A stretch of 64,000 nt of DNA from a bacterium (GCA_018646105.1 JABGVJ010000099.1:5387-69386), one strand, 5' to 3'; positions 32,814-60,332 are shown, numbered from the stretch's first letter. Notes: generated by a model not told the origin, from the letters alone. A program made the numbers and translations.

Positions 32814-34142
32814 GTGTTTTTATTAAATTTAAATTATTTATTAAGGAAATATAAGATGAAAAAATATAAAACACTTATATTTTTAATGAATTTTATTTTA
32901 GGAAGACCTCCTAAAATAGGGGAAATAAAATCAGTTTGTAATAGAATAAAAAAACAATATTTTTTACAACTTAATACAAAAGATATTTTTTTGGATAGAG
33001 TAAAATTATTTCTTCATATATTAATTTTTCCATTTAAGTTTTCTTTTAATTTAAATAAGTCTAAAGCAAAAATATTTATATATGATATAGAAAAAAAAGA
33101 TATAAGAAAAAGGTTTGTGCAATATTATCGACAAAAAGAAGGCCAAAATTTAGATTTAAAAGATATTGAAATTTTTCGAAGTAATGAATTTTATTATAAC
33201 GATATAAGCGTAAAAACAATATTTTTTTTAATTAAAATATGGGTAATATTTTTAGGATGTAGTTTTTTTTCTTTTTTCGATCGTACTAGCTGTTCATATT
33301 TATGGCTTTTATGTGTATTAAATAATATTGCTAATGCGATTTTTACCAATAAGGGCGTTTCTGAATTATATTTTTCTTATCTATATAATATACAATCATA
33401 TTTTTCTGTTTTACTAATTAGTAATATATTAGAAAATCAAATTTATTTAATTTCTGGGAATAGTATGCTTTATACAATTAATAGATATACTAGTGCAGAA
33501 AAATGCAATTTTATTTTATGTTCTAAATATCAGGAAGAAGAAGCTAATAATTTTATAAATTTGCATTGGATAAAAGTGAAGAGTATTAAATTGTGGGGGT
33601 TAGATGGGGCTTCATTTTATGAAGATTTAAAACCACAAAATTTTTTATATGATGTAGGTATTTATAGCAGTGTTTCTTGGGCCAGGGTAGATGGCGTTTG
33701 GCGAGCAAATGATATAAAGGCAATAAAAAATTATAAGTATATAAAAAATGAACGATATGCTAATTTTTTAAAAATTTTGGACGAAATTATAGAACTGAAA
33801 AAAAAAACAGGGATAAAAGTTAAGTTTTATTTGCATCCTTTTGAAAGATATTTATATAAAGTTCATAAAATAAAGCCTCCTTATTTTTCTATTTTAGTTA
33901 AAGAAGGTATAGCTGTTGATTTTAAAGATGATAATTCAATTAAAAAAATGTATGAGGCTAAAGTAGGAGTTACTTTATGTTCGACAATTATTTTTGATAG
34001 ATTACATTATGGTTTAGAGGGCTTTATTTATGCTGAATGGCCTCAACACAAAATGTTTAATCCTAAATTTATGGGGAAATATCAAGCTAATATTTTTTAT
34101 AATTTTGATGAGCTTCAAGCAAAAATAAAAAAAGCTTTATAA
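32814..34142 (+). CDS. Hypothetical protein; very AT-rich and Asn/Lys/Ile-rich. The probable start is the MKKYKT Met at 32856.
   Basis: ORF only. Contains an A10 tract at 33798-33807. Confidence 0.3.
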   Translation: MFLLNLNYLLRKYKMKKYKTLIFLMNFILGRPPKIGEIKSVCNRIKKQYFLQLNTKDIFLDRVKLFLHILIFPFKFSFNLNKSKAKIFIYDIEKKDIRKRFVQYYRQKEGQNLDLKDIEIFRSNEFYYNDISVKTIFFLIKIWVIFLGCSFFSFFDRTSCSYLWLLCVLNNIANAIFTNKGVSELYFSYLYNIQSYFSVLLISNILENQIYLISGNSMLYTINRYTSAEKCNFILCSKYQEEEANNFINLHWIKVKSIKLWGLDGASFYEDLKPQNFLYDVGIYSSVSWARVDGVWRANDIKAIKNYKYIKNERYANFLKILDEIIELKKKTGIKVKFYLHPFERYLYKVHKIKPPYFSILVKEGIAVDFKDDNSIKKMYEAKVGVTLCSTIIFDRLHYGLEGFIYAEWPQHKMFNPKFMGKYQANIFYNFDELQAKIKKAL

Positions 34143-34161
34143 AAAGAAATTATAAATAATT

Positions 34162-35649
34162 ATGACTAAATATATTCATTCAGGTAGCCATATAAAAACA
34201 CTTTTAAAAAATTCTTCTTGGTATTTTATATCCTCCATTTTATCAAAAGGCTTAGGCATAATTCTTATGCCAATTATGACGCGTTTGTTAACTACGACAG
34301 ATTATGGGCTTTTATCAAATTTAAATGCGATAATTGGTTTTGTTACTGTGTTCATTTCATTATATATTGACAGTGCTTTTAATCGATTTTATTTTGAGCA
34401 CAATGAAAGTCAAAAATCGCTTAAGGAATATATCAGTACATTTTTTTGGTTTGTAACTTTTTGGGGGGCATTTGTAACTTTTATTTTAATAATAGTTAGT
34501 AAATTTTACTTAGCTTCATTATATTCAATAAAATTTTTCCCTCTTCTTTTTGGAGCTTCAATCATTCCATTATTTATTCAGCTAGCCGCGTTTGGCTCAC
34601 ATTATTTAAGAAATAATCTTAAAATAAAATTAATTGTTATTCCTAATTTAGTTATATCTATACTAACAATTATCGTAAGTATCTTTTTGATTATTAAATT
34701 TGATTTAGGAGTTGTAGGTAGATTTTATGGTATTTTATTAGGTGTTTTCTTGTCGTTTATATATTTTACTTTTATTTTAATTCAAAAAAAGTTAATCATA
34801 TTTTATTTAGATAAAAAGTTAATCATAGCTGGGTTGAAATACTCTCTTCCTCTTGTTCCTTTAGCTCTTTCTTCTTGGATAACGCAATTAAGTGATCGTA
34901 TTATTCTTACTTATTATACAGATTTTTCAGAAACAGGTTTGTATGATGTTGCATATAAAGCCTCTTTAACTTTAAGAATATTTACAGAATCAATATTTCA
35001 GGTTTATTCTCCAATGATGATATCAATGTATACTCATGATAAAGAAGCGTTTAGAAGTAAGTTAAAGAAGTTTATTCCTCAGTTTAATTGGATAATGCTT
35101 TTTGCTGCTTTTTATTTGGCTATTTTATCAAAAGAAATAATTATAATATTGACAGGTAGTAAATTTCATAGCGCCTATACTTTGGTTCCTATTATTGTTT
35201 TTGCCTATTATATTAGTTCGCATCAAAAATATTTTGGGTCAATTTTTGGATTAAAGAAAAAGACATATTTAAGCACAGTTGGATATTTTTTGCAGGCGTT
35301 GATTAATTTAACATTAAATATTATTTTTATTCCAATTTTAGGAAAAGTTGCTGCCGCATGGTCTACTTTTTTTTCATTATTCTTTTTAACGATATGGAGT
35401 GGTTTTTGGTTTTTTAAATGGGAGAGTGTTAAAATAGAATGGAATAAGATTATCAAGACTTTTTTGATTTTGATCATAGTTTATATAGTATATTTAGGCA
35501 TTAATACTGTTTTTAAGTATACAGCAGTGCCAATGTTCTTTATTAAATTATTAATAACAGCTCCGGTTATTCTTTTCTTTACTTATAAATTTGAGATTAT
35601 TAACATCAAAGGAATCATGGGCATATTTAACAAAAAAGGATTTAAATAA
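34162..35649 (+). CDS. Wzx-type oligosaccharide flippase (MOP superfamily)
   Basis: 495 aa, 12-14 TM helices, polysaccharide-biosynthesis-protein pattern. Confidence 0.7.
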   Translation: MTKYIHSGSHIKTLLKNSSWYFISSILSKGLGIILMPIMTRLLTTTDYGLLSNLNAIIGFVTVFISLYIDSAFNRFYFEHNESQKSLKEYISTFFWFVTFWGAFVTFILIIVSKFYLASLYSIKFFPLLFGASIIPLFIQLAAFGSHYLRNNLKIKLIVIPNLVISILTIIVSIFLIIKFDLGVVGRFYGILLGVFLSFIYFTFILIQKKLIIFYLDKKLIIAGLKYSLPLVPLALSSWITQLSDRIILTYYTDFSETGLYDVAYKASLTLRIFTESIFQVYSPMMISMYTHDKEAFRSKLKKFIPQFNWIMLFAAFYLAILSKEIIIILTGSKFHSAYTLVPIIVFAYYISSHQKYFGSIFGLKKKTYLSTVGYFLQALINLTLNIIFIPILGKVAAAWSTFFSLFFLTIWSGFWFFKWESVKIEWNKIIKTFLILIIVYIVYLGINTVFKYTAVPMFFIKLLITAPVILFFTYKFEIINIKGIMGIFNKKGFK

Positions 35650-41676: not shown

Positions 41677-43812
41677 ATGTTACAAGCAATAGTAAAAAAA
41701 GGTAAAGTTTTTGCTGAGAAAGTTTCTGCACCAGTTGTATCTAAAAATATGGTTTTAATAAAAGTAGTGAATAGTTGTATTTCAGCTGGAACTGAAATTA
41801 GCGGAGTTAAAGATAGTGGGACATCCCTAATTAAAAAGGTTTTAGACAAGCCGGAGCAATTAGCAAAGGTCGTGGATATGGTTAGACAGCAAGGATTTTG
41901 GGATACATATGAAAAGATTAAAGGGAAATTAGAGATAGGTGTGCCTACAGGATATTCGATTTCTGGGGTTGTTATGGGAGTGGGCGAAGGTGTGTCTGGA
42001 TTTAAAACCGGAGATGAAGTAGCGGCCGCAGGTGCGGGATTAGCTAATCATGCTGAATATGTAAATATTCCAGAAAATTTGGTGATGAAAATGCCTAAAG
42101 GAATGAACTTTAAAGAAGCATCTACAGTGACTTTGGGTGGGATAGCAATGCAGGGAGTGAGAAGAGTAGATTTGAGATTGGGGGAATATGCGGTTGTGGT
42201 TGGGGCTGGTATTTTAGGGCTTTTAAGCATCCAGATGTTAAAGTTAGCGGGAGTTAGGGTAGCAGTAATTGATTTAGATGAAAAAAGGCTAGAGATTGCT
42301 AAGGAATTAGGAGCTGAAATAATTTTAGATCCGGTTAAGACAGATACGGTGAAAGAAATTGAAAATTGGGCTAATGGATATGGGGCGGATGCCGTTTTGT
42401 TTACAGCGGCGACTTCTAGTAATGAACCATTATCCCAAGCTTTTCAAATGTGTAGAAAAAAAGGGAAAGTGGTTCTAGTAGGTGTGTCTGGAATGGAAAT
42501 TAAAAGAGAAGATATTTATGCTAAGGAACTTGATTTCCAAGTTTCTACCTCATATGGTCCTGGAAGGTATGATAAAAATTATGAAGAAAAAGGTCTTGAT
42601 TATCCATATGCTTATGTGAGGTGGACGGAAAATCGTAATATGAGAGAATATTTAAGGCTAGTACGAGATGGACATATTAAATTAGATAAAATGATTAATG
42701 CGGTTTATCCAATAGAGAAAGTAACTGAAGCATTTGAATCTTTGCAGGATAAGGCGAATAAACCGTTAATGGTTATTTTGGATTATGGACAGGTAGATAA
42801 AGAAAAAATTAATAGTTATTTAAAACAGGATAGAAAAATTTTTGTAAATAATATACCACTTAAAAAAGACATTATAAATGTGGCGCTTGTGGGAGCAGGT
42901 GGGTTTGCTACCGGAATGCATTTACCTAATATACGAAAGTTGAAAGATAAATATAGATTATATTGTGTAATGAACAGAACAGGGCATAAAGCAAAAGCTG
43001 TAGCTGAACAATATAAAGCGAATTATGCAACCACGAATTATGAAGATGTATTGAAAGATAAAAATGTAGATTTAGTGTTAATAGCTACCAGGCATGACAG
43101 TCACGCAGATTTAACAATAAAGGCGCTGAAAGCAGGTAAACATGTTTTTGTAGAAAAACCTTTAGCAACCACGCAAGAGGAATTGGAAAGAATAATTGCT
43201 TTTTATGACAGTAACGAATTTAAGTGCAAGCCAGTTTTGTTAACGGGCTTTAACAGAAGGTTTAGTAAATATGCACAAGAAATAAAGAAATATACAGATA
43301 AAAGGATAAACCCTTTATTTATTAGTTATAGAATGAATGCTGGTTTTATACCTTTGGATCATTGGGTACATGAAGATGGCGGTAGAATTGTAGGTGAAGG
43401 ATGTCATATTATTGATTTGATGAGTTTCTTTACAGGATCTAAGATAGTTTCTATTAGTTGCGAAGAAATAACTCCAGTAAATGAGGCAATCAGTTTTAGT
43501 GATAATAAAGCGATTATATTGAAATATGAAGATGGTTCTGTAGCTAATATTAATTATTTTGCTATTGGTAGTAAAGAATATCCTAAAGAGTATATGGAAG
43601 TGCATTTTGATCAAAAAACAATTGTGCTTGATGATTATAAAGCATTGAAAGGATATGGTGTTAAAATTAAAGAAATAACAACAGCCCAAAGTGAAAAAGG
43701 TCAGTTTGAAGAGTTGGAAAGATTATACGAAATATTAAGAGGAGATAAGCAAGATTGGCCTATAGAGTTGTGGGATATGGAGCAGACAACGAGGGTGGGG
43801 ACTTTTAAATGA
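41677..43812 (+). CDS. Two-domain oxidoreductase: N-terminal Zn-dependent MDR alcohol/polyol dehydrogenase fused to a C-terminal Gfo/Idh/MocA NAD(P)-oxidoreductase
   Basis: GVVMGVGEGV and GAGILGLLSIQMLKLAG (MDR family), then VALVGAGGFATGMHLPNI (Gfo/Idh/MocA Rossmann fold); 711 aa. GC is visibly higher than in its neighbours. Confidence 0.65.
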   Translation: MLQAIVKKGKVFAEKVSAPVVSKNMVLIKVVNSCISAGTEISGVKDSGTSLIKKVLDKPEQLAKVVDMVRQQGFWDTYEKIKGKLEIGVPTGYSISGVVMGVGEGVSGFKTGDEVAAAGAGLANHAEYVNIPENLVMKMPKGMNFKEASTVTLGGIAMQGVRRVDLRLGEYAVVVGAGILGLLSIQMLKLAGVRVAVIDLDEKRLEIAKELGAEIILDPVKTDTVKEIENWANGYGADAVLFTAATSSNEPLSQAFQMCRKKGKVVLVGVSGMEIKREDIYAKELDFQVSTSYGPGRYDKNYEEKGLDYPYAYVRWTENRNMREYLRLVRDGHIKLDKMINAVYPIEKVTEAFESLQDKANKPLMVILDYGQVDKEKINSYLKQDRKIFVNNIPLKKDIINVALVGAGGFATGMHLPNIRKLKDKYRLYCVMNRTGHKAKAVAEQYKANYATTNYEDVLKDKNVDLVLIATRHDSHADLTIKALKAGKHVFVEKPLATTQEELERIIAFYDSNEFKCKPVLLTGFNRRFSKYAQEIKKYTDKRINPLFISYRMNAGFIPLDHWVHEDGGRIVGEGCHIIDLMSFFTGSKIVSISCEEITPVNEAISFSDNKAIILKYEDGSVANINYFAIGSKEYPKEYMEVHFDQKTIVLDDYKALKGYGVKIKEITTAQSEKGQFEELERLYEILRGDKQDWPIELWDMEQTTRVGTFK

Positions 43813-44234
43813 ATATAGGCGTTAATTTGAAAGTTTTTTTAATAAAGATGGGAAAGCAGTTTGTTAAATTTTCTATTAATGGGGGGTTTTGTGCAGGTGT
43901 TGAATTTTTAGGGTTTTGGTTTTTTATATATTTTGGAAAAAATTATATGGTTTCTCAAATTTTTTCGTATAGTATTAGTATGTCGCTAAATTTCATTTTA
44001 AATCGATTTTGGACCTTTTCGTTACGAGCGGAGATTAAACAATTAGAAGCTTTTAAATTTTTAGTAGTGAATATAATAACTATGGTATCAATGCTTTTTT
44101 TAATATATATTTTTAAGGATAGAATGAATTTAAATTTATTTGCTAGTAAGATTTTAGCTACAAGTATTTTGATGTTTTTTAATTTTTTTTGCTATAAATT
44201 TTGGGTTTTTAAAAGAAATTTTGTAGAAGGGTAA
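43809..44234 (+). CDS. GtrA-family small membrane protein
   Basis: 141 aa, 4 TM helices, GtrA-like. Confidence 0.55.
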   Translation: MNIGVNLKVFLIKMGKQFVKFSINGGFCAGVEFLGFWFFIYFGKNYMVSQIFSYSISMSLNFILNRFWTFSLRAEIKQLEAFKFLVVNIITMVSMLFLIYIFKDRMNLNLFASKILATSILMFFNFFCYKFWVFKRNFVEG

Positions 44235-45440
44235 ATGTTTATGTTTTCTTTACAAACTAAAAAGTCTATGGCAAAGGCTTTATTAACAAAAAATTCTCCT
44301 TTTTATATTCAATTTTATATTTCTAAATATTGTCATTTAAAATGTAAAATGTGTAATATTGTGGAAGCTAATGCAGATGTTACGCCTTTTAAAAAAGAAC
44401 ATATAGAAAAAATAGCAGATAATTTAGTTAAAATAGGGGCAGGTGTGATCCTTTTGACAGGAGGAGAACCTTTTTTACGGCCAGATATTGATGAAATTGT
44501 GAGGGTTTTTAAAAGCAAAAATTTAGATGTGAGAATGCAAACAGCTGGATTAATTGAACAAAAAGCAAAAATTGAAAAATGTGTGGAAAATGGAGCGAGA
44601 GATATAAATATTAGTTTAGATTCTTTAGATGAAAATTTATCTGATTATATTAATGGAGTGAAAGGTTCTTGGAAAAAGGCTATACAATCTATTTCTTTAG
44701 TGTCTAAAACGTTTCCCAAAAAAGATTCTGTGTGTGCGCTTGGTTGTGTTTTGTCTAATTATAATATAGATGAAATTGAAGCAGTTTTGGAATTTGCTAC
44801 TAAGATTGGTTGGTGGCTATCATTAGTACCAGTACATATTAATGAAGAAGACTACCCCTTGAATTTTAGAGGTTATGATAAATATTTTAAAATTCCGGAA
44901 AGCAAATTTTTTCAATTAAAAGCTTTAATTGAAAGATTGAAAAAGAAAAAAAGAGCAGGATTTAATTTGTTTGATTCAGATGATTATTTGGATTCTATTT
45001 ATCATTTTATAACAACTGGACATCCTAATTGGCGGCACAAAGGCGTTTGCGATACTCCTAATTTGTATTTTGTTATATTACCCGATGGTAGGTTTGCTCC
45101 TTGTTGTGATTATAGGTTTGACGAGGATATTTATGTGTATGATGAAGATTTTCCTGAAATTTATAAAAGTAAAGGATTTAGAAAAAAAATAAAAGCAATT
45201 GCGAAAAAATGTCCAGGGTGTAATTTTGGCAGTTTTCCGGAAATGACTTTGTCAGCAAGGTCTTTTTCAACAATTAAGGAACGTATTTTGTTACAAAGCA
45301 AAGCAAAAAAAGCTGGTTTAAGACCATTGCAAGAGAAAGCAGTTTTAGAGATTATTGCGAATATTAAAGGAAAATATGAGATTTATCATAAAAAAAATTA
45401 TTCTAAATTTAGAGATAAAAAAGTATGTATCAAAAATTAA
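44235..45440 (+). CDS. Radical-SAM enzyme with a Cys-rich C-terminal (SPASM/twitch-like) domain
   Basis: CHLKCKMC (CxxxCxxC), LTGGEPFLRPD, and a C-terminal Cys cluster (C..PCC...CPGC). Confidence 0.65.
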   Translation: MFMFSLQTKKSMAKALLTKNSPFYIQFYISKYCHLKCKMCNIVEANADVTPFKKEHIEKIADNLVKIGAGVILLTGGEPFLRPDIDEIVRVFKSKNLDVRMQTAGLIEQKAKIEKCVENGARDINISLDSLDENLSDYINGVKGSWKKAIQSISLVSKTFPKKDSVCALGCVLSNYNIDEIEAVLEFATKIGWWLSLVPVHINEEDYPLNFRGYDKYFKIPESKFFQLKALIERLKKKKRAGFNLFDSDDYLDSIYHFITTGHPNWRHKGVCDTPNLYFVILPDGRFAPCCDYRFDEDIYVYDEDFPEIYKSKGFRKKIKAIAKKCPGCNFGSFPEMTLSARSFSTIKERILLQSKAKKAGLRPLQEKAVLEIIANIKGKYEIYHKKNYSKFRDKKVCIKN

Positions 45441-47866
45441 CCTCTATCATTAAATATATTAAAAATAAAGAAGTGTCTTTTGCACAGGCTGTAATAAAGC
45501 ATTATATAGTGCCTCAAGATGTTTTGGTTAAGAATATACCATCGGATGCGGTGGTATTAGATATAGGATGTGGAGAGGGAATTTTACTAAATGTTGTTGG
45601 GTATATGTTGTCTAAAAGTAAATGTATAGGTATTGATATTGATCGAAAAAAAATAGATATAGCTAAAAGAAATGCTAATCAAAATGTGGAGTTTAGGTGC
45701 CAGAATTTTTTTGACTTGGATTCTGATTTTAAAGTTGATGTAGTAATCATGAATGATTTTGTGCATCATTTTTCTTATTCTAAACAATTAGAGCTAATGG
45801 ATAACGTTGTAAGAAGAATTAAGCCAGGTGGTAAATTATTTTTAAAGGAAGTAGATCAATTAGATAAGCTAGATAGGGGTGTAACTACGTTTTTTGATAA
45901 AAAGCTTTATCCTAATGATGATTTATCTTATAGAACGAAAGATGAATGGTTAGTTTTTTTAAAGAGGTTAGGGATAACAAATGTTAAGGTAGAAAAAATA
46001 AAAAAAATGTGGCCGGCATCTAATACTTTATTGATAGCTAAATTACCGTTAGATAGAGATGTCGGATATGTTGATAATACAAAAAAAATTCAAGAAAGAA
46101 CGTTAGCTGCTAGAAAAAATAAACTAAAAACGGTTTTTGTAACAGGGGCAACAGGGTTTATTGGTAAATATGTTATAGACTATCTTTTAGAAAAAGGAAT
46201 GGCTGGAAATTCTGTAAGCTTAGTTTTGTTAACTAGAAATATGGATAACATTCCCAAAAAATATTTACATAATGAAAATATTGAGTGGCTAGTAGGGGAT
46301 TTGCATGATATGGAGCCACTTAAAGAATGTTTAGTGGAAATCGATTATGTTTTTCATTTAGCTGCAGAGGTTAAATTTTTTAAAGGTGCGGATGTTTGGA
46401 AAAATAATTATTACGGTACACTTTGTTTACTAGAAGCTTTAAAGGAAGTGAAGATAGAGCGATTTGTATTTGCAAGTACGATAGGCGCTTTTGATCGATT
46501 ACCGTCAGACTCTTGTACTCAACCATTAGATGAAAAGGCCGAGCCTAATCCGTTATCGGAATACGGTAAGTCAAAACTTGAAGCAGAAAGAGCGGTTAGA
46601 AATTCTGGTTTGAATTATACTATCGTGAGGATTCCTTGGGCGTATGGGAAAGGAATGACGCCGGATACCCATGTTAGAAATTTGATGCAGGCAGTGTATC
46701 AAAAGAAAATAGCTACCTGGTTTAATTTCCCAGGTAAAGTAAGTATAGTTGCAGCTCGAGATTTAGCAAGAGCTTTCATTTTTTTAGCAGAAAATAAGAA
46801 AGCTTTAAATGAGATATATTTTGTAACTGATGGGCAACCTGTTTCTTTAGGTGATTTATTTAAATTAATGGGAGATATTATTGGGACAAAAGCTGGATTT
46901 ATAAATATACCTAAAATTATTACTAAAATAGCACAGAGATTAAGGCGTTTTTTTCCCTTAGTTATTCAAAATTTAAATAGTGATGTTTTAACTGCTACAA
47001 ATGAAAAGGTTTTTAATGTTGGGTTTCAGATTGAAACTAGTAAAAGAGAAGGTTTACAGATTTTAGCGGAAGATGTCGGTATATTATCATCGGTTTTAAG
47101 AGAAAATGAAAAGCTGATAACTATTGTAACCGGAGCAGCCTCTGGTATCGGCAAGGCTTTGGCATCTAAGTTATCAGAATTAGGGCATCGCTTATTATTG
47201 ATAGATGTTCAAAAAATTAATGTTGAAAATTTTTCTAATCAGGTAAGGGTGGATTTTTTAAATTTAGATCTAACTAAAGTAGAATCATTAAATTTTATAG
47301 CAGATTATTTACAGAAAAATAAATATGTGGTGGACTGGGTTTTTAACAATGCAGGTATTGGCATACGAGGAGAGTTTGCAGAATTGAAATTTGAAGCACA
47401 GAAAAAAGTAATAGATTTGAATTGCGTGGTGCCTACTTTTTTATCTCATTTAGCTTTAAATCATTTTAAAAAATTTAATAGAGGTAGAATTATTAATATA
47501 GCCTCTTCTTCTGCTGTACAACCTCTTCCTTTGATGAGTGTTTATGCGGCCTCTAAATCTTATATTAAATCTTTTACGGAAAGTATAACCGGAGAAATGT
47601 TGGCTAAAAAAAATATTAGAATAACGACTGTTATTCCTTCTGGTACAGATACGGGGTTTCAAAAGGCTTCTGGTGTTAAAAAGAATGAAAATGAAAAATT
47701 GATGTCGGCAGAAGAAGTTTCTCGAAAAATTATAGATGCTGTTTTTAAAAATAAAAATATTGTTTACGTTGGTTTTCTAGGTAAAATAATGGCGATTTTA
47801 GCGAATATTTTACCGATTAATTGGCAAATTAAACTATGGTATACATTAATGAAAAAAATGAGGTGA
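45425..47866 (+). CDS. Tri-domain fusion: class I SAM methyltransferase, then NAD-dependent epimerase/dehydratase (extended SDR), then classical SDR
   Basis: LDIGCGEG motif; VFVTGATGFIGKYV with YGKSK (YxxxK); VTGAASGIGKAL with YAASK (YxxxK); 813 aa. Confidence 0.65.
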   Translation: MYQKLTSIIKYIKNKEVSFAQAVIKHYIVPQDVLVKNIPSDAVVLDIGCGEGILLNVVGYMLSKSKCIGIDIDRKKIDIAKRNANQNVEFRCQNFFDLDSDFKVDVVIMNDFVHHFSYSKQLELMDNVVRRIKPGGKLFLKEVDQLDKLDRGVTTFFDKKLYPNDDLSYRTKDEWLVFLKRLGITNVKVEKIKKMWPASNTLLIAKLPLDRDVGYVDNTKKIQERTLAARKNKLKTVFVTGATGFIGKYVIDYLLEKGMAGNSVSLVLLTRNMDNIPKKYLHNENIEWLVGDLHDMEPLKECLVEIDYVFHLAAEVKFFKGADVWKNNYYGTLCLLEALKEVKIERFVFASTIGAFDRLPSDSCTQPLDEKAEPNPLSEYGKSKLEAERAVRNSGLNYTIVRIPWAYGKGMTPDTHVRNLMQAVYQKKIATWFNFPGKVSIVAARDLARAFIFLAENKKALNEIYFVTDGQPVSLGDLFKLMGDIIGTKAGFINIPKIITKIAQRLRRFFPLVIQNLNSDVLTATNEKVFNVGFQIETSKREGLQILAEDVGILSSVLRENEKLITIVTGAASGIGKALASKLSELGHRLLLIDVQKINVENFSNQVRVDFLNLDLTKVESLNFIADYLQKNKYVVDWVFNNAGIGIRGEFAELKFEAQKKVIDLNCVVPTFLSHLALNHFKKFNRGRIINIASSSAVQPLPLMSVYAASKSYIKSFTESITGEMLAKKNIRITTVIPSGTDTGFQKASGVKKNENEKLMSAEEVSRKIIDAVFKNKNIVYVGFLGKIMAILANILPINWQIKLWYTLMKKMR

Positions 47867-47875: not shown

Positions 47876-48823
47876 ATGAATAAAGAAAAATTAGATATAG
47901 TTGTTCCTGTTTATAATGAGGAAGAAAGTATAGAAGAGTTATTAAAGCGTTTGTTTGTTTTAAAAGAGAAAATGAATTTTCTCGATATAAATTTTATTTT
48001 TATTAATGATGGGTCTAAAGATCGCACTTTGGAAATTTTAAATAAATATGCGCAACAAAATAATTTTGTAAAAATTATTAATTTTAGTAGGAATTTTGGG
48101 CATCAGTTTGCGTTAACAGCAGGAGTGGATCATTCAGAAGCTGATTTTGTAGCGATCATTGATGCTGATTTGCAAGATCCTCCAGAATTGATTGAAGATA
48201 TGTATAATGAGGCTAAAAAAGGTTGTGACATAGTTTATGGGAAAAGGTTAGAAAGAAAAGGGGAAACTATTTTTAAAAAAATTACAGCCAAGTGTTTCTA
48301 TAAATTTATGAGAATGATGGTAGATGTGGATATTCCGGCTGATACCGGAGATTTTAGATTAATAAACAATAAGGTGCTTAATTATTTAAAGCAGATGCAG
48401 GAAAAGCATAGATTTATTAGAGGAATGGTTCCATGGATAGGTTTTAACAGTACGCCTTTATACTATAATCGAGATATTAGGTATGCTGGAGAAACAAAGT
48501 ATCCTTTAAACAAAATGTTGAAATTTGCTTTGGATGCAATATTTTCTTTTTCTAATAAGCCATTAAAACTAGCTAATCATATAGGTTTTTTTGCTATATT
48601 TATAGGTGTTTTTGGTAGTTTTTTGATGTTGTATTTTTTCTTTTTTACTGATTTTAAAGTACCTGGTATTACAACTACTATTTTAACCATACTTATTATG
48701 GGTGGTATTCAGATTTTAATGTTGGGTATTATAGGTGAATATATTGGTCGGATTTTTGAGGAAGTAAAAGCGCGACCTTTATATGTAATAGAAAGTACTA
48801 AAAATTTTATAAAAAGAGGATAA
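47876..48823 (+). CDS. GT2-family polyprenyl-phosphate glycosyltransferase (GtrB/ArnC/DPM1-like)
   Basis: LDIVVPVYNEE, DGSKD and DADLQDPP motifs; C-terminal TM helices. Confidence 0.75.
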   Translation: MNKEKLDIVVPVYNEEESIEELLKRLFVLKEKMNFLDINFIFINDGSKDRTLEILNKYAQQNNFVKIINFSRNFGHQFALTAGVDHSEADFVAIIDADLQDPPELIEDMYNEAKKGCDIVYGKRLERKGETIFKKITAKCFYKFMRMMVDVDIPADTGDFRLINNKVLNYLKQMQEKHRFIRGMVPWIGFNSTPLYYNRDIRYAGETKYPLNKMLKFALDAIFSFSNKPLKLANHIGFFAIFIGVFGSFLMLYFFFFTDFKVPGITTTILTILIMGGIQILMLGIIGEYIGRIFEEVKARPLYVIESTKNFIKRG

Positions 48824-48826: not shown

Positions 48827-49642
48827 ATGAAAAAAGTTAACTCTGGAGAAAAAATATTACATAAGGAAGAATCTTTTCATGATGATTGGGCGGCTAGTGT
48901 GGATATTGATAGAGTTGCAGTTGATGAGTTTTTTGAGGCTTGTACGGCTCCTGAAAATAGATACATCATGCAAAAATTGGGAGACTTGAATGGAAAAAGA
49001 ATATTGGAAGTTGGTTGCGGTTTAGGCGAGGCTTCTGTATATTTCGCTAAAAAAGGTGCGGATGTAGTTGCTACAGATATTTCTTCTGGAATGCTTGAGG
49101 TAGTAAAAAAATTAGCGGCTTTACATAACGTATCCTTGACCACTAAACAGGCTTATTCGCATGAATTAGATTTTGTTGATAATTCATTTGATGTTGTGTA
49201 TGCAGCAAATCTTTTACATCATATAGACTTAGAACCGACTTTAAAGGAAGTGAAAAGAGTTTTAAAAAAAGGGGGCGTATTTATATCTTGGGATCCATTA
49301 GCGCATAATCCGATGATTAATGTATATAGAAAAATGGCTATGAAAGTAAGAACTGATGATGAACATCCGATACAAATGAAACAATTAAAAATTTTCAAAC
49401 AATTTTTTTCTAAAATAGATATTAAAACGACTTGGTTTTTTACTTTATGGATTTTTTTAAAGTTTTATTTTATTGATAGAGTTGATCCAAATAAAGAGCG
49501 ATATTGGAAGAAAATAATAACAGATCATAAAAAACTAGAAAAAATGTATTATAGGCTGGAGAAGATAGATAATTTATTTTTGAAACTTTTTCCTTTTATG
49601 AGAAGGTTTTGTTGGAATATTGTGGTAATAGGAGAGAAATAG
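48827..49642 (+). CDS. Class I SAM-dependent methyltransferase
   Basis: ILEVGCGLGEASVYFAKKGADVVATDIS motifs; 271 aa. Confidence 0.65.
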   Translation: MKKVNSGEKILHKEESFHDDWAASVDIDRVAVDEFFEACTAPENRYIMQKLGDLNGKRILEVGCGLGEASVYFAKKGADVVATDISSGMLEVVKKLAALHNVSLTTKQAYSHELDFVDNSFDVVYAANLLHHIDLEPTLKEVKRVLKKGGVFISWDPLAHNPMINVYRKMAMKVRTDDEHPIQMKQLKIFKQFFSKIDIKTTWFFTLWIFLKFYFIDRVDPNKERYWKKIITDHKKLEKMYYRLEKIDNLFLKLFPFMRRFCWNIVVIGEK

Positions 49643-49644
49643 AT

Positions 49645-50949
49645 ATGAATTTTTTAAAAAGTAATAATTTTTTTACTCTTTGTGCTATTTTGTTTTTTGG
49701 TGTATTTTTTTTCTTTTTTGTTAATATTTTTTTTACGCATAAATATAATCCGGAAAAATATTTGAACTCAAATTTAATAGAAATTGCAAAACAAAAATTT
49801 ATTGATAAAGGCTATGAAAATATTCATTTTGGATTGATGCCGGCAAGATATAGAACCTTAATTAAGGCTGTTAATGGATATGCGTCTTCAAAAATTTATT
49901 TGGTAGTTAAAGATAAAAAAAGTTTTAAGGCTTTAAATTTAGCAGATGATAAGGGCTTTTATTTTTTTGTTATAGTTTTGATGAATATTTTTAATCTGTC
50001 TTTAAATAAAGCTATAGATGTATTTTTTATTTTTTTATTTGCAGGGGCTTCAATTTCGGGAATGATAGGTGGAATGTTTCTGTACAAAAAATGGTTGTTA
50101 AGAATGATTTATTTAAGTAGTTTGATGTTTATTAATTTTATTGCAATTAGGGTAGGGGGGTTATATGTCATAAATGCTTTATTGGTAGTTGCTTTTTTTC
50201 CTTGGGTATTATGGCTTTTTGAAAGAAATAAAATAGATAAAATAACTTTTATAGTATTGTCTGCTATTGTTTTTTTTATTTCGATAGCTCATTTTGTGCG
50301 AGTTTATTCAGGTGTTGGGCTATTATTATTTATGCTAATTTTATTATTTTATTTTGTTAAGAGCTCTTTGAAAAAAAAATGTTTGTTAATTTTTATTCTT
50401 CTTATGTTCGGTTTGCTTCCTGTGTTATTTTTTAATTCGTTGTTTAGTGAAAGAGATCTTTTTTTGAGAAAAAATGTAGCTAATTATACAAAACAAACAA
50501 ATATTGAAGGACATTATTTTTGGCATAATGCATATATAGGATTGGGATATCTTGAGAATCCTTATGTGTCAGCATATAAGGATGAAGTTGGTATAGCTAA
50601 AATCAAATCAGTAGATCCAAACGTTATTTTTGCATCTATGCAGCATCAAAAAATTTTAAAAGAAGCTTTTTTTGAATTAATTTTTAAACATCCACTATTT
50701 TTTATGCGTAATGTTTTTGCAAAATTTGGAGTTATTTTATTTTATTTTTTGGCTTCCGCAAATATTGGTTTATTTTTTGCTTATTTTTATAGGAAATCTA
50801 AAATACTTGAAGTTAGTTTTTTGGTAGCTTTGGGATTTAATGCTTTATTCGGAATATTGATAGTTCCATATTCAACTTATTTGCTTGGATTCATAGCTTT
50901 TGCCACTATGTATGGAATGGTAAGTATAAATTATTATTTAGAACAATGA
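49645..50949 (+). CDS. Polytopic membrane protein; possibly a GtrC-like/polymerase-like glycosyl-modifying membrane protein. Start set at MNFLKS.
   Basis: About 11 hydrophobic helices; no motif recognised. Confidence 0.3.
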   Translation: MNFLKSNNFFTLCAILFFGVFFFFFVNIFFTHKYNPEKYLNSNLIEIAKQKFIDKGYENIHFGLMPARYRTLIKAVNGYASSKIYLVVKDKKSFKALNLADDKGFYFFVIVLMNIFNLSLNKAIDVFFIFLFAGASISGMIGGMFLYKKWLLRMIYLSSLMFINFIAIRVGGLYVINALLVVAFFPWVLWLFERNKIDKITFIVLSAIVFFISIAHFVRVYSGVGLLLFMLILLFYFVKSSLKKKCLLIFILLMFGLLPVLFFNSLFSERDLFLRKNVANYTKQTNIEGHYFWHNAYIGLGYLENPYVSAYKDEVGIAKIKSVDPNVIFASMQHQKILKEAFFELIFKHPLFFMRNVFAKFGVILFYFLASANIGLFFAYFYRKSKILEVSFLVALGFNALFGILIVPYSTYLLGFIAFATMYGMVSINYYLEQ

Positions 50950-54130: not shown

Positions 54131-56251
54131 ATGAATGTTTTAGAAAAAATTGTTAGAACGCCAATGCCAATATTAATAAATAAATTGTCACATAAATTAT
54201 TTTTTAAATTTTTTGAATATAGAGATTTATATTTTGATACAAGGATTAGTTTTGATGTAGAAAAAATTCAAAAAAACTATATTGATATTTCAAAGTTGGA
54301 TTTTTCTAAAATAGATAAAAAAGTAGTTAAATATTTAATAGATATGTATTTAAATCATAGATTTGATTTTTTGGGTAGTGGTTGGGTGACAAATAGTTAT
54401 GATTCAAAAGTTTTGGGTCTTGAGCAGTATAGATATGAAATGAATGTGGAAATAGAAAGGTTTGATAAGGAAGGAAAGTGGCTTAATAAAATTATTTTGT
54501 CAAAACATTTGAAAAGGAGTAAAAAAATTTGGCAACAAGTTTCTGAAAATTATATTCCAATTGATTGGCAGAAAGATTATAAGAGTGGCTTTCGGTGGGA
54601 TGCTAGAAAATGGTATAAAAATCAGCAGATAGGAGATAAATTAGGATCTGATATTAAAGTTCCTTGGGAATTAGCGAGATTACAACATTTACCGCAAATG
54701 GCCATATTTTCATTGGTTTTACCTAATAAGAAAGATCAATTGATATTGGAATTTAAAAATCAAATTTTGGATTTTATAGCTACAAATCCCCCAAGAATGG
54801 GTTGTAATTGGACTTGCGCAATGGATGTTGGTATTCGAGTAGCTAATATGCTTGTGGCTTATGATATGTTTTTACAAATAGATAACAATGGAATTTTAGA
54901 TAATAAATTTAAACAGATTTTTGCTAATTCAGTATATGAGCATGGGGTTCATATAATGAGTAATTTGGAGAATGGACTAATCACCTATAATCATTATTTA
55001 GCAAACATAGTTGGCTTATTATTCGTTGTTGCTTACTTAGAGAAAACTAAAATAGTTGATCGGTGGTTAGGTTTTGCAGTTAAGGAACTAATAAGAGAGT
55101 TTGATAAACAGTTTTATGAAGATGGTAGTAATTTTGAAGCGTCAACTAATTATCATAGATTAAGTGGTGAATTGATGATATATGGGGCAGCTTTTGTTTT
55201 AGGATTAGAGAAAGATAAAGCGGAAAATGTTTTTCCAGAATGGTTTTGGGAAAGATTATGGCGGGTAGGGAAGTTTACAGTAGACCTCACAAAAAAAACA
55301 GGTGAAATTTCTCAAATTGGAGATAATGATAGTGGTCGTTTTTTTAGGTTTTCACCAAGTGGGCTGTTTTTAACAAATAAACAGGCTGAAGAACAATATC
55401 TAAATTTAGAAGGTTATAATAAACTGATTAATAAACCAGCAGAACTTTTTTGGGATAAAAATATTTTAAATCATGCTACATTTGTGTCAGCTATAGATGG
55501 TTTATTTAATGATGAAAACTTTCAGAATTATAGTCATAATTTCCCTTTGGAAAAAAGTATCATAGAGGCTTTGGCAAAAGGTAAAAAGGTAAAGATTAAA
55601 GATGTAAAAGAAAGAGAAGTTAAGATTGAAAGCCAGGGGCTAGATTTAGAGAAATATGAATATCATAAAGAAACAGTTATTAAGCCATCCAGCAAGAAAA
55701 AGACTTCTTTAGATCAGAATTTAGTTTTAATTTCATATTCTGATACAGGTATTTATATTTTTAAATCAGATAGAATTCATATGACAATTTCAGCAGGACC
55801 AAATGGGCAAAATGGTAATGGTGGGCATGCGCATAATGACAAATTATCTTTTGAGCTTAATATAGATGGCGAAGATTTATTTGTGGATCCTGGTACGTAT
55901 CTTTATACGCCTTTACCAGAAAGAAGAAATGAGTTTAGAAGCGTGAAAGTTCATAATACTTTGGTGGTGGCTGATGAAGAACAGAATGATTTTAGAGATC
56001 TTTTTGGCTTAGTGAAAGAAGCTGAATGTATCATAAGGAAAATAAGCAATAAGGAAATAATAATAGAATTAAATTATAAAGATGTTATTTGTTTGAGAAA
56101 AATATGTATTATGGAAGATAAAATTTTAGTAAATGATTTTGCTAATAAAGAATTTAAAGTTAATTTTGTTGATGATTATTTATATTCTAATGGATATGGT
56201 AAGTTTTTTAAAAAAAGGAATGAGTTTGAAAAAAATATTATTTGTAACTAA
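54131..56251 (+). CDS. Heparinase II/III-like (alginate-lyase-superfamily) protein
   Basis: NWTCAMDVGIRVANM and the C-terminal GHAHNDKLSFEL heparinase II/III motif; 706 aa. Confidence 0.55.
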   Translation: MNVLEKIVRTPMPILINKLSHKLFFKFFEYRDLYFDTRISFDVEKIQKNYIDISKLDFSKIDKKVVKYLIDMYLNHRFDFLGSGWVTNSYDSKVLGLEQYRYEMNVEIERFDKEGKWLNKIILSKHLKRSKKIWQQVSENYIPIDWQKDYKSGFRWDARKWYKNQQIGDKLGSDIKVPWELARLQHLPQMAIFSLVLPNKKDQLILEFKNQILDFIATNPPRMGCNWTCAMDVGIRVANMLVAYDMFLQIDNNGILDNKFKQIFANSVYEHGVHIMSNLENGLITYNHYLANIVGLLFVVAYLEKTKIVDRWLGFAVKELIREFDKQFYEDGSNFEASTNYHRLSGELMIYGAAFVLGLEKDKAENVFPEWFWERLWRVGKFTVDLTKKTGEISQIGDNDSGRFFRFSPSGLFLTNKQAEEQYLNLEGYNKLINKPAELFWDKNILNHATFVSAIDGLFNDENFQNYSHNFPLEKSIIEALAKGKKVKIKDVKEREVKIESQGLDLEKYEYHKETVIKPSSKKKTSLDQNLVLISYSDTGIYIFKSDRIHMTISAGPNGQNGNGGHAHNDKLSFELNIDGEDLFVDPGTYLYTPLPERRNEFRSVKVHNTLVVADEEQNDFRDLFGLVKEAECIIRKISNKEIIIELNYKDVICLRKICIMEDKILVNDFANKEFKVNFVDDYLYSNGYGKFFKKRNEFEKNIICN

Positions 56252-57362
56252 AGATTTTTTACCAGCGATAGGTGGTGGGATTAGAAGAATAGAAGCTCTT
56301 TATAAGGCTTTTTTGGTGAATAAAGGGCTTACTTTAGAAGTAGTGACGGCTGAAAGTAGAGCGCAAGGGCGATACAAGGATGTGCAGTATATCTCACAAT
56401 TATTATTTAAGGATAAGATATCATCTGGAGGTGGATTATCGAGGTTAAATAATAAAGTTAAGATTAAGTTTTTTGATAAAGCTTTAATTGGTTGGTTACC
56501 AAATGTTATTTTTAGAATTTTTTATAAAAAATATGATTTGGTTTATTGTACGGTTCCTACTTTTACTAATTTATTAATAGGTTTTTTATATAAATTGGTA
56601 AGAATGAATAAGCCTAAGTTGATAGTTGAGTATCGAGATATGTATAGTTTTAATCCTGAATATAAAGATGGTTTTAGTAAGAAGTTTTTGCAAATTATAG
56701 AAAAATTAATTTTAAGAAATTGTGACTATATTGTAGTTACTACTCAGGGGATGAAAAATGTTTTTTCTGCTTTTATAGAAGATAATAAGATATGGATGAT
56801 GAGAAATTATGTAAGCAAAGATGATTTAAATATTATTAAAAAATTAGATAGAGATGAGTATGATAAGCGTTATTTTCATATTGGTTATGTAGGTACTTTG
56901 AATACAGGTCGCCATCCAGAAGTTTTTTTAGGTATGTTGAGGCTGAAAGTAAAGAACAAAGAAAGTGTTTTGCATTTTGTAGGAATAACAGAAGCTCAAA
57001 AGAAGGGCGTTTTAGAAATAATGGAAAACCGTGGCTTAGATAATACGAAAGTGATTTTTCATGGTAAAGTAAGTCGCTTAATTGCTTTGAAATATATGAA
57101 GTCCTTGGACGCTCTTTTTTTGATAATTAATAAGAAGGCTTTAATTAAAGATGGCTATGGTATTCCAGGGAAATTGTATGATTATATTCAAGCAAATAAT
57201 AATTTGTTTGCGGATTCAGTTACTTTTGACAATTTAAGTAGTGAGTTTAATTTAGAAATTATTGAACAGTATGATGATTATATTAATTTTTCTTTAAACG
57301 ATAGTACCTTATTGAATGATAAGTTGGAAATGTTTATAGATAAATTGGTTAAGGAGCTTTAG
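56220..57362 (+). CDS. GT4-like glycosyltransferase. Start set at MSLKKILFV (ATG at 56220, RBS AAGGAA); it overlaps the previous gene by 32 nt.
   Basis: FLPAIGGGIRR N-terminal GT4 pattern. Confidence 0.55.
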   Translation: MSLKKILFVTKDFLPAIGGGIRRIEALYKAFLVNKGLTLEVVTAESRAQGRYKDVQYISQLLFKDKISSGGGLSRLNNKVKIKFFDKALIGWLPNVIFRIFYKKYDLVYCTVPTFTNLLIGFLYKLVRMNKPKLIVEYRDMYSFNPEYKDGFSKKFLQIIEKLILRNCDYIVVTTQGMKNVFSAFIEDNKIWMMRNYVSKDDLNIIKKLDRDEYDKRYFHIGYVGTLNTGRHPEVFLGMLRLKVKNKESVLHFVGITEAQKKGVLEIMENRGLDNTKVIFHGKVSRLIALKYMKSLDALFLIINKKALIKDGYGIPGKLYDYIQANNNLFADSVTFDNLSSEFNLEIIEQYDDYINFSLNDSTLLNDKLEMFIDKLVKEL

Positions 57363-59652: not shown

Positions 59653-60332
59653 GTATGACTTTTGAGCAATTTTTAGCAAATACGAGTCCAAATATAGCTT
59701 TAGGGAGTTTTGTATTTGATCTGTTATTAACGTTTTTATTAACTTTGCTATTAGGATATGTATATATAAAGTTTGGGCATGCGTTATCTAATCGTAAATC
59801 GTTTGCTAGAAATTTTGTTTTGATTACTATGACCACGATGTTGATTATTACAGTGGTTAAATCATCTTTGGCCTTATCTTTAGGTTTAGTGGGAGCTTTG
59901 TCTATTGTGAGGTTTAGGACAGCTTTAAAAGAGCCAGAAGAGTTAGCGTATACCTTTTTTGCGATAGCCCTAGGTTTGGGATTTGGTGCGAATCAAAGAG
60001 TGCTTACCATTGTTGCTTTTATAATCATTGTGGGTTTGGTTATAGCTAGAAGTTATTTTTCAAAACAAGGTGGAGCTCATCATAATTTGCATTTAACTAT
60101 TTCTAGTCATAAGCCGGAAAAGGTTAAGTTGACAGAAATAGTAGAGGTTTTGAAAGAGCATAGTGAAGCCGTAGATATGAAACGTTTAACAGAAGGTGAA
60201 GGTACATTAGATGTTTCTTTGTATGTAGAGTTTAATACTTTTGAACAATTAAATAAGGCTAAAGAAGCATTGCAAAGAATAGATAAATCTATAAACTTGA
60301 ATTTTTTTGATAACGCAGGGATTATGGCGTGA
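59640..60332 (+). CDS. DUF4956-family membrane protein
   Basis: SLGLVGALSIVRFRTALKEPEEL matches the DUF4956 conserved core (VGALSIVRFRT) as recalled; 230 aa. Confidence 0.5.
   Translation: MDKLGMTFEQFLANTSPNIALGSFVFDLLLTFLLTLLLGYVYIKFGHALSNRKSFARNFVLITMTTMLIITVVKSSLALSLGLVGALSIVRFRTALKEPEELAYTFFAIALGLGFGANQRVLTIVAFIIIVGLVIARSYFSKQGGAHHNLHLTISSHKPEKVKLTEIVEVLKEHSEAVDMKRLTEGEGTLDVSLYVEFNTFEQLNKAKEALQRIDKSINLNFFDNAGIMA

Follow-up and report, generated by a model that had tools for sequence, protein, structure and literature searches.

What does a bacterium gain from a single gene that joins a methyltransferase to two different reductase-type domains? This question is raised by a stretch of 64,000 nucleotides (nt) from a bacterium (GCA_018646105.1 JABGVJ010000099.1:5387-69386; the whole stretch is called the window, and positions are counted from its first letter), in which one gene codes for an S-adenosylmethionine (SAM)-dependent methyltransferase (MT), an extended short-chain dehydrogenase/reductase (SDRe) and a classical short-chain dehydrogenase/reductase (SDRc) in the same chain. 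Public annotation of the protein reads only "SDR family NAD(P)-dependent oxidoreductase". Our analysis suggests, as a reasonably probable reading, that it is a trifunctional oxidise/reduce/methylate tailoring enzyme of an expanded Gtr-type side-chain glycosylation module, and the product of this module is most likely a modified sugar decorating a cell-surface polysaccharide.

Architecture of the tri-domain protein

The gene and its parts are as follows.

45425-47866, plus strand: tri-domain enzyme MT-SDRe-SDRc, 813 amino acids (aa), supported by the open reading frame (ORF), Pfam, an AlphaFold2 model and about 65 clusters of full-length homologues
45425-46039, plus strand: domain 1 (aa 1-205), class I SAM-dependent methyltransferase; Methyltransf_25, invariant motif I
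46040-46123, plus strand: variable linker 1 (aa 206-233), weakly conserved and of variable length in the alignment of 29 sequences
46124-47089, plus strand: domain 2 (aa 234-555), SDRe, probably of NADP(H) type, not a dehydratase; Epimerase PF01370, R271
47090-47863, plus strand: domain 3 (aa 556-813), SDRc, probably of NAD(H) type, with amphipathic C-terminal helices; adh_short PF00106, D594

The gene is one unbroken ORF with an ATG start, and its product carries three Pfam domains that score above their gathering cut-offs: Methyltransf_25 at aa 44-136 (E-value 7e-18), Epimerase PF01370 at aa 237-464 (9e-39) and adh_short PF00106 at aa 566-749 (5e-40). The signature motifs were located at positions 48-52 (GCGEG), 241-247 (GATGFIG), 380-384 (YGKSK), 569-578 (TGAASGIGKA) and 707-711 (YAASK). 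An earlier interpretation made from the DNA letters without database searches (the sequence-only reading) had proposed both the 813-aa three-domain frame and the intactness of these motifs; both were borne out, the motifs being invariant or nearly so across the 29 tri-domain proteins (32-54% identity) of the alignment from which the conservation of the protein is described below.

That two or three neighbouring genes were merged here by a sequencing or assembly error has a negligible chance of being true. The same 813-aa protein, identical throughout, occurs on 15 contigs from several collections (ENA, NCBI GCA_018693095.1, JGI), which excludes an assembly or frameshift artefact, and the internal stop or frameshift considered in the sequence-only reading did not appear. 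Dozens of full-length homologues and the ordered linkers of the AlphaFold2 model speak against a merger as well. This model, built on the 29-sequence alignment, reached a mean pLDDT (predicted local distance difference test) of 91 and a pTM (predicted template modelling score) of 0.87 with no disordered segment; linker 1 comprises a non-regular stretch (aa 207-218) followed by a helix (219-231). Such a pTM for an 813-residue chain of three domains argues for a defined, compact domain arrangement. In Foldseek searches no solved structure matched more than one of the domains in a consistent arrangement. The protein has no transmembrane helix and no clear membrane anchor, its single weakly hydrophobic segment lying at aa 779-797. 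All three domains belong by sequence to well-known superfamilies, and none reaches the curated threshold of any characterised enzyme family.

Catalytic residues and cofactor types

Judged by its Pfam scores (PF13649, 65.5 vs a cut-off of 27 bits; PF08241, 58.9 vs 21.2 bits), its GxGxG motif and the acid at the end of strand beta2, domain 1 is a class I SAM-dependent methyltransferase. Residues D46, G48-C-G-E-G52 (motif I), D71, N110-D111, H114, K141, V143, D147, D150 and T154 are invariant. The acidic residue that ends beta2 of class I methyltransferases binds the ribose of SAM, and D71 occupies this place in the model (strands 43-47 and 66-71). The lack of SAM-binding residues, which the sequence-only reading had named as a possible weakness, is contradicted by the invariance of GCGEG and D71. 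The nearest curated families are UbiG (51 bits) and BioC, and the nearest solved structure is 8rdl (E-value 2e-9), a methyltransferase from the xenorhabdin paper.

Domain 2 is an extended SDR, as indicated by TGxxGxxG, the Ser-Tyr-Lys residues, a length of about 320 residues and its fold. T240-G241-x-x-G244-F245-x-G247, S351 and Y380-x-x-x-K384 are invariant, and the Epimerase family PF01370 scores 133.7 vs a cut-off of 20.9 bits (NAD_binding_4, 52 bits). Foldseek aligned the domain with EvdS6, RmlB and a GlcNAc 4-epimerase at TM-scores of about 0.7-0.8 over some 335-350 columns. The best solved sequence match is the UDP-glucose 4-epimerase 4zrm (E-value 1e-17), followed by the GDP-sugar 4-epimerase 8rdg. 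The possibility that 8rdg/h/i (SDR) and 8rdl (MT) come from one system was rejected, these being an unrelated GDP-sugar 4-epimerase and a xenorhabdin N-methyltransferase. Among curated models, the best match is the hopanoid-associated sugar epimerase HpnA (TIGR03466), at 88.5 vs a cut-off of 367.65 bits, and domain annotation revealed no hopanoid genes in the glycan locus of the window. LegB (69.5 bits) likewise stays far below its cut-off, and GalE (TIGR01179) reaches 67.9 vs 262.3 bits with the N-terminal half alone aligning.

Nucleoside diphosphate (NDP)-hexose 4,6-dehydratases and UDP-glucuronic acid (UDP-GlcA) decarboxylases carry TDE or TSE at the catalytic Thr. In the SDRe domain the catalytic S351 is followed by T-[M/I]-G in 26-29 of the 29 sequences, with no Asp or Glu, and the dehydratase models score far below their cut-offs: 47.3 vs 365 bits for the dTDP-glucose 4,6-dehydratase RmlB (TIGR01181), 29.8 vs 415 bits for GMD (TIGR01472) and 38.5 vs 278 bits for the CDP-glucose 4,6-dehydratase model. 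Lacking the acid/base pair, the domain does not support the dehydration step that had been ascribed to it. In GalE-like epimerases an Asp ends beta2 and binds tightly held NAD+. Contrary to this GalE-type Asp, the position following the beta2 strand (264-270) of SDRe is Arg271 in 29/29 sequences; from this residue and the general SDR coenzyme rules, SDRe is probably an NADP(H)-dependent reductase.

Domain 3 has the features of a classical SDR, i.e., TGxxxGxG, NNAG, an Asn-Ser-Tyr-Lys tetrad and about 250 residues, and is assigned to that class on these grounds (adh_short PF00106, 137.4 vs 26.6 bits). G570-x-x-x-G574-x-G576, D594, N641 (of NNAG), N666, S694 and Y707 are invariant, and K711 is kept in at least 90% of the sequences. 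Asp594, the last residue of strand beta2 (590-594) in 29/29 sequences, together with the same general rules, points to SDRc as probably an NAD(H)-dependent dehydrogenase. With Arg271 of NADP type and Asp594 of NAD type, the roles proposed by the sequence-only reading, an epimerase/dehydratase for the extended SDR and a keto-reductase for the classical one, are probably reversed. Curated matches of SDRc are generic classical SDR families, and its closest structures in Foldseek are those of 17beta-HSD13 (HSD17B13), an enzyme with a lipid substrate (TM-score about 0.8).

A conserved module around the tri-domain gene

The evidence that tells most about the function of the protein comes from its neighbours, which lie in the order gtrA, radical SAM, tri-domain gene, gtrB, 271-aa methyltransferase and 446-aa polytopic membrane protein, all on the plus strand.

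43809-44234, plus strand: gtrA-like small membrane protein, 141 aa, putative polyprenyl-phosphate-sugar flippase; Pfam GtrA_DPMS_TM PF04138 (E-value 2.9e-19, 69.8 bits), hydrophobic segments
44235-45440, plus strand: radical SAM enzyme, SPASM-like, 401 aa; Pfam Radical_SAM (E-value 8e-24, 85 bits)
47876-48823, plus strand: gtrB orthologue, polyprenyl-phosphate glycosyltransferase of family 2 (GT2), 315 aa; similarity to GtrB 5EKP, two C-terminal transmembrane helices
48827-49642, plus strand: free-standing SAM methyltransferase, UbiE/PMT-like, 271 aa; Methyltransf_11 (E-value 9e-24)
49609-50949, plus strand: polytopic membrane protein, 446 aa, about 10 hydrophobic segments, candidate GtrC/GT-C-type transferase by its gtrC position

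The 3' end of the radical SAM gene overlaps the tri-domain gene by 16 nt, and a Shine-Dalgarno-like sequence (GAGGTGA) precedes gtrB at the stop of the tri-domain gene, both of which indicate tight operon packing. The window GT2 resembles the glucose-specific Synechocystis GtrB 5EKP over aa 5-306 (295.7 bits, E-value 4e-87; ArnC, 130 bits). The key residues of GtrB (D94, D96, R122, D157 and R200; PMC4728340) are all five identical in the alignment, and transmembrane segments were predicted at 239-257 and 269-287. On the strength of this full-length similarity, the DxD/catalytic residues and the two transmembrane helices, the GT2 is identified from its sequence as a GtrB orthologue. Of the parts of a three-component system the window thus contains GtrA and GtrB, and the third would be the 446-aa polytopic protein, which shows twelve partly overlapping hydrophobic windows along its chain. 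The 271-aa methyltransferase is closest among solved structures to the phosphoethanolamine N-methyltransferase 5wp4 (E-value 7e-18) and also matches the D-glucose O-methyltransferase 6uv6 (7.5e-10).

The radical SAM partner, of which the sequence-only reading made no mention, carries CX3CX2C at C33/C37/C40 and further cysteines (C116, C167, C171, C272, C290, C291, C326 and C329) kept in 117-121 of 121 sequences. Although its SPASM match is marginal (22.1 vs a cut-off of 21.5 bits, E-value 1.9e-4), these features characterize it as a radical SAM enzyme with a C-terminal Cys-rich, SPASM-like auxiliary region. The best solved relative is the cytosylglucuronate decarboxylase BlsE (7vob), aligned over aa 24-158 in the radical SAM core (E-value 2e-8). 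The protein has 940 homologues at an E-value of 1e-20 or lower, the best 120 of the 940 being 61-75% identical, and the names found among the matches listed include Omnitrophota, Bacteroidota, Spirochaetaceae and Ca. Methanoperedens. Such conservation across phyla and in the archaeon Ca. Methanoperedens suggests that the module has been transferred between bacteria and archaea and that its substrate is strongly constrained.

Four genes of this set, coding for the radical SAM enzyme, the tri-domain protein, the GtrB-like GT2 and the UbiE-like methyltransferase, were found together in loci L005, L006, L072 and L073, which were located via homologues 35-44% identical. Identity to the window proteins amounts to 45-72% for the radical SAM enzyme, 35-44% for the tri-domain protein, 53-62% for the GT2 and 41-65% for the methyltransferase. 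Radical SAM orthologues adjoin the SDR fusion in every locus examined. A GtrA gene lies beside the module in L005 also, and GtrA or another flippase-like protein recurs around it together with GT-C enzymes that use polyprenyl-phosphate-sugars. Recognised GT-C enzymes accompany the module in four loci: PMT_2 immediately upstream of the radical SAM gene in L073, MptA_B in L075, two PMT-type proteins in P0047 and GT87 in P0090. Across the loci compared, the flanking nucleotide-sugar genes vary and no nucleotidyltransferase belongs to the conserved set, which suggests a housekeeping UDP-sugar as the input.

Other loci show variants of the arrangement. The near-identical loci L074 and L076, both archaeal (the radical SAM protein of L076 is named Ca. 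Methanoperedens), encode a radical SAM enzyme, an SDRe-SDRc protein, a Zn-ribbon/Methyltransf_23 protein, a UbiE-like methyltransferase and a flippase-like LPG_synthase_TM protein. L075 contains a radical SAM enzyme, a protein of degenerate SDRe and SDRc, a GT2, a methyltransferase, an SDRe-MT protein and the MptA_B-family GT-C; its degenerate protein (526 aa) consists of a degenerate SDRe N-terminal part and an intact SDRc. The P0090 locus comprises radical SAM, MT, di-SDR, Methyltransf_23, GT2 and the GT87 GT-C, and the P0047 locus comprises UbiA, HAD, MT, GT2, radical SAM, MT, di-SDR, B12-radical SAM and the two PMT-type GT-C proteins. The flank of UbiA and a HAD phosphatase in P0047 resembles the polyprenyl-phosphoribose synthase/phosphatase pair of pentofuranose systems.

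Where the di-SDR protein has no fused methyltransferase, a 302-315-aa Methyltransf_23 protein lies near it (L076, 10458-11405; L074, 8658-9566; P0090; P0047), directly after the di-SDR in three of the four such loci and with a weak Zn-ribbon match in L076. The archaeal gene was considered as a split-off copy of the fused domain and rejected, as it gave no match to the MT-domain profile; the Methyltransf_23 protein may represent a non-orthologous replacement of the fused MT. Seven unannotated neighbour proteins, mostly large, gave no Pfam match at E-values up to 1, the L073 PMT_2 protein alone matching PMT_2, and BLASTP among them gave no match either. Directly upstream of gtrA in the window, an ORF at 41677-43812 (plus strand) encodes a 711-aa fusion of a zinc-type alcohol dehydrogenase (ADH_zinc_N/ADH_N) and a GFO_IDH_MocA oxidoreductase, another unusual two-oxidoreductase fusion with the highest G+C (GC) content of the cluster (0.347).

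Composition and age of the fusion

The sequence-only reading had also described a break in composition at the first domain boundary, between an AT-rich methyltransferase segment and GC-richer SDR segments, and had taken it as a sign of recent domain fusion; we weighed this idea in a form in which the methyltransferase gene was acquired horizontally. Total GC content does differ between the domains (MT 0.289, SDRe 0.334, SDRc 0.306). However, GC at third codon positions (GC3) shows no difference (0.220, 0.224 and 0.221, respectively), and the entire shift resides in codon positions 1+2 (0.324, 0.390 and 0.349), thus reflecting amino-acid composition. Left/right differences as large as this are seen at 11% (one-sided) to 19% (two-sided) of the positions in the gene cluster, and the only feature visible in the sliding-window profile, a GC bump of 0.37-0.40 around 46300-46800, falls within SDRe, away from the boundary near 46040-46123. 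Hence, the composition break was not confirmed, and GC3 marks no segment as foreign.

The distribution of the architecture points in the same direction. Among 5.8 billion proteins searched, about 65 clusters (780-827 aa) aligned with the query from end to end at 32-54% identity, and shorter matches had the architectures SDRe-SDRc (553-605 aa) and MT-SDRe (523-544 aa). When 1.84 billion representatives were searched with a profile, the top 150 included about 20 full-length tri-domain and about 100 SDRe-SDRc proteins. When 242 collected relatives were sorted by architecture with domain profiles, 126 were SDRe-SDRc, 73 MT-SDRe-SDRc, 20 SDRc only, 11 SDRe only, six MT only, four MT-SDRe and two SDRe-MT. 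A neighbour-joining tree built from the SDRe-SDRc core that these proteins have in common placed all 73 MT-SDRe-SDRc proteins in one clade of 85 leaves; 12 two-domain sequences, some of them clearly truncated gene calls, lie inside this clade and the other 114 outside. The tri-domain proteins share a median of 41% core identity, with 23% as the lowest value, and the MT domain of the L005 homologue, only 44% identical overall, still scores 297 bits against the MT profile. With equal GC3, a GC shift within local variation and the fused form shared by so many diverged relatives in one clade, the recent fusion is refuted, and we hold it to be very improbable. The pattern rather fits a history in which an SDRe-SDRc ancestor gained the MT domain once, long ago, and its descendants then diverged over a long period.

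In L075 the MT domain is joined to the C-terminus of SDRe in a 523-aa protein (7001-8572; 246 bits against the MT profile at aa 321-522), and the SDRc is part of a separate protein beside the radical SAM gene. The independent pairing of MT with SDRe in this order speaks for activities that are functionally linked. Taxon names attached to the tri-domain proteins are limited to "bacterium" and Thermodesulfobacteriota, and the family is uncharacterised and seen solely in metagenomes, of bacteria and Ca. Methanoperedens.

Proposed function and alternative explanations

In the reading that we favour, GtrB would load a hexose from a common UDP-sugar onto undecaprenyl phosphate, the hexose being glucose as a guess by analogy with the closest characterised GtrB relative. 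The hexose might then be remodelled on the lipid carrier, or alternatively as the UDP-sugar just before transfer, by three proteins: the radical SAM enzyme, the tri-domain protein and the second methyltransferase. SDRc, using NAD+, would oxidise a hydroxyl of the sugar to a ketone, and SDRe, using NADPH, would reduce a keto group. The net result would be epimerisation, or deoxygenation in case the radical SAM enzyme contributes a dehydration step like that of AprD4/AprD3. Methyl groups from SAM would be added by the MT domain and by the free-standing methyltransferase. Finally, GtrA would flip the finished polyprenyl-phosphate-sugar, and a GT-C-type enzyme would transfer the sugar to the polysaccharide of the surrounding Wzx/Wzy-type locus. 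The domains with their conserved motifs and cofactor-type residues, the four-gene module, the GtrB orthology and the age of the fusion are established by the data; the order and direction of the redox steps, the atom that receives the methyl group, the radical SAM reaction, the sugar and, above all, its carrier are inferred.

Within this reading, tailoring at the lipid level and tailoring at the nucleotide level are roughly even. Lipid-linked tailoring is favoured by the closeness of the GT2 to glucose-specific GtrB, the lack of module-specific nucleotide-sugar genes and the HSD17B13-like SDRc, and has a precedent in a three-component system whose cytoplasmic GalE-like SDR turns undecaprenyl-phosphate-ribofuranose into undecaprenyl-phosphate-xylofuranose (PMC11127046). 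The SDRe fold, the missing membrane anchor and the precedent of the Arn pathway, described below, favour tailoring of the nucleotide sugar. A more ambitious form of the lipid-level variant, which we advance as a tentative possibility, is that the module constitutes an unrecognised pathway that remodels glucose on undecaprenyl or dolichyl phosphate by radical dehydration or rearrangement, redox inversion and one or two methylations, yielding a methylated deoxy or branched surface-glycan sugar in uncultured bacteria and Ca. Methanoperedens.

Several observations weigh against the proposed function. The cofactor preferences were deduced from one residue per domain and from the general SDR rules; the fold of SDRe has its nearest counterparts among NDP-sugar enzymes and fits nucleotide-sugar tailoring equally well; the tri-domain protein has no clear membrane anchor; the BlsE match of the radical SAM enzyme spans the core alone at an E-value of 2e-8; the archaeal loci L074 and L076 have no adjacent GT2; and the putative GT-C of the window, the 446-aa protein, matches no family in Pfam or NCBIfam. 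In the literature that could be searched we found no description of the fused architecture or of the four-gene module.

It is conceivable, if rather unlikely, that the substrate of all three domains is a soluble nucleotide sugar (UDP-, GDP- or dTDP-hexose) and that a GtrB-like GT2 specific for the modified sugar uses the methylated, epimerised or reduced product. The Arn pathway offers a precedent, in which the soluble ArnA and ArnB complete the UDP-sugar before the GT2 ArnC transfers it. In sequence and fold, SDRe is nearest to NDP-sugar epimerases, dehydratases and decarboxylases, the tri-domain protein is soluble with no transmembrane helix, and NDP-sugar genes (rmlABCD, NTP_transferase) are often present in flanking loci. 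However, the module has neither a nucleotidyltransferase nor a 4,6-dehydratase as a conserved partner, SDRe has no dehydratase residues and carries the NADP-type Arg271 at the position of the GalE Asp, the GT2 is close to glucose-specific GtrB (296 bits), and SDRc resembles SDRs with lipid substrates. The nucleotide sugar proposed by the sequence-only reading is therefore a possible rather than an established substrate, and the GtrB/GtrA/GT-C partners make a polyprenyl-phosphate-linked sugar at least as likely.

A slim chance is given to a role in lipid metabolism, in which the module would modify an isoprenoid or lipid (for instance the polyprenyl carrier or another membrane lipid) instead of a sugar and GtrB would just supply a glycosyl head group. 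The resemblance of SDRc to HSD17B13, the HpnA match of SDRe (with SdmB and OleD also listed), the UbiG- and UbiE-type neighbours of the MT domains and weak matches of the radical SAM protein to the lipid enzymes Tes and HpnH would agree with it. Yet these matches are generic and lie far below the family cut-offs, and the locus in the window, like every related one, is a glycan locus with GT-C, Wzx and glycosyltransferases of the GT1, GT2 and GT4 families. The mycofactocin, arsenosugar and hopanoid pathways, to which weak NCBIfam matches were obtained (MftF/MftM, TIGR04283/ArsM and HpnA/HpnH, respectively), were rejected, because every score falls far short of its cut-off and the partner genes that define these pathways are missing.

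Relation to known systems

By analogy, the system is of the Gtr or three-component type with added tailoring steps, and also resembles fused sugar-tailoring enzymes such as ArnA. As in GtrA/GtrB/GtrC O-antigen glucosylation of Shigella and Salmonella phages (5EKP, PMC4728340), a GtrA-family protein, a GtrB orthologue and then a polytopic protein are encoded in a surface-polysaccharide locus. Contrary to classical gtr operons, which have no tailoring enzymes, the window has genes for the radical SAM enzyme and the MT-SDRe-SDRc protein separating gtrA from gtrB and one for the second methyltransferase after gtrB, and its protein in the GtrC position has no recognisable family. The insertion of tailoring genes among gtrA and gtrB implies that the transferred sugar is not plain glucose.

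Pentofuranose systems with an SDR epimerase (ORF13 of Citrobacter youngae O2, PMC11127046) offer a parallel in concept: a sugar already bound to polyprenyl phosphate undergoes redox epimerisation by SDR-type enzymes in the cytoplasm, and is only then flipped and passed to a GT-C. The two-step oxidise-then-reduce logic of mycobacterial DprE1/DprE2 resembles the pairing of an NAD-type with an NADP-type SDR here. Those systems differ in starting from phosphoribosyl pyrophosphate via a UbiA-type transferase, in their single-domain enzymes and in having no methyltransferase or radical SAM enzyme, and no sequence orthology to them was shown.

Fused or paired enzymes provide further parallels. ArnA, of the undecaprenyl-phosphate-L-Ara4N pathway, combines a formyltransferase with an oxidative decarboxylase acting on UDP-GlcA. 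Like the tri-domain protein, it is a multidomain tailoring enzyme with an extended SDR that feeds a GT2 of the ArnC/GtrB class and then a GT-C (window GT2 vs ArnC, 130-151 bits), but the SDRe described here has no decarboxylase-type residues and its partner domains are a methyltransferase and a classical SDR. Proteins of the PRK07201 type, which include fatty acyl-CoA reductases such as M. tuberculosis FcrA and Marinobacter Maqu_2507, likewise carry an extended-SDR-like domain followed by a classical SDR in one chain, and the NCBIfam model matches our protein in two stretches. The first of the two SDR domains is here of the Epimerase type (134 bits) and not NAD_binding_4 (52 bits), in a glycan and not a lipid context; assignment to the PRK07201 two-SDR oxidoreductases (NF005539) was rejected at 108.2 vs an equivalog cut-off of 549 bits.

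Radical SAM enzymes of sugar metabolism are known from the deoxygenation pair AprD4/AprD3 (radical SAM plus SDR) and from BlsE, DesII and BtrN. The window shares with them a radical SAM enzyme with auxiliary cysteines, beside NAD(P)-dependent SDR domains in a carbohydrate pathway; BlsE alone was compared by sequence, and its similarity, confined to the radical SAM core, does not amount to orthology. The Pgf protein-glycosylation system of Streptococcus mutans is similar in its PgfS-like GT2 (282 bits against the NCBIfam model), an extended-SDR epimerase-like function (PgfE) and membrane GT-C-like partners (PgfM1/M2). It differs in that the window GT2 is below the PgfS cut-off of 500 bits and the Pgf epimerase has a single domain; Pgf is not known to include a radical SAM enzyme or methyltransferases.

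The surrounding polysaccharide locus

The role in sugar or glycan biosynthesis put forward in the sequence-only reading gains support from the Wzx/Wzy-type polysaccharide locus in which the module lies. In addition to housekeeping genes (HisRS, ProRS, SerRS, DXS and an H+-PPase), the window contains genes for Wza-like, CpsB, Wzc-like and WbaP-like proteins, UDP-GlcNAc 2-epimerase, UDP-ManNAc dehydrogenase and Wzx, and the same locus encodes several GT1, GT2 and GT4 glycosyltransferases, a DegT aminotransferase, FemAB, a deacetylase and a heparinase-like gene. The segments at 19617-26978 (Wza/CpsB/Wzc/WbaP-like) and 32814-35649 (Wzx) are parts of one and the same polysaccharide locus, which is split by a block on the minus strand (27030-32619) that encodes Fer4/LdpA-like and HMGL-like proteins. 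Two plus-strand ORFs, heparinase II/III-like (54131-56251) and GT4-like (56133-57362), overlap by 119 nt, and the true start of the latter is probably further downstream. At the end of the glycan locus, a DUF4956 membrane protein precedes an 859-aa protein (60329-62908, plus strand) with a CotH kinase domain and a right-handed beta-helix/pectate-lyase-like region.

Significance

Gtr-type systems are the textbook route by which bacteria alter surface antigens after polymer assembly, and the usual view is that they add a plain sugar. The finding does not amount to a paradigm change: the domain types are familiar, fused tailoring enzymes are common and current understanding is not contradicted. 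The firm association of a GtrB orthologue with a radical SAM enzyme, a three-in-one enzyme and a second methyltransferase in one conserved module nevertheless suggests an unexplored class of modified side-chain sugars, possibly tailored on the lipid carrier. Should remodelling on the lipid carrier prove true, the tri-domain enzyme would be the first multifunctional tailoring enzyme acting at that level. The homologues that bear names belong to several bacterial phyla and to methane-oxidising archaea, and with four to six genes the module is a compact, testable set for finding new carbohydrate chemistry and for glycoengineering.

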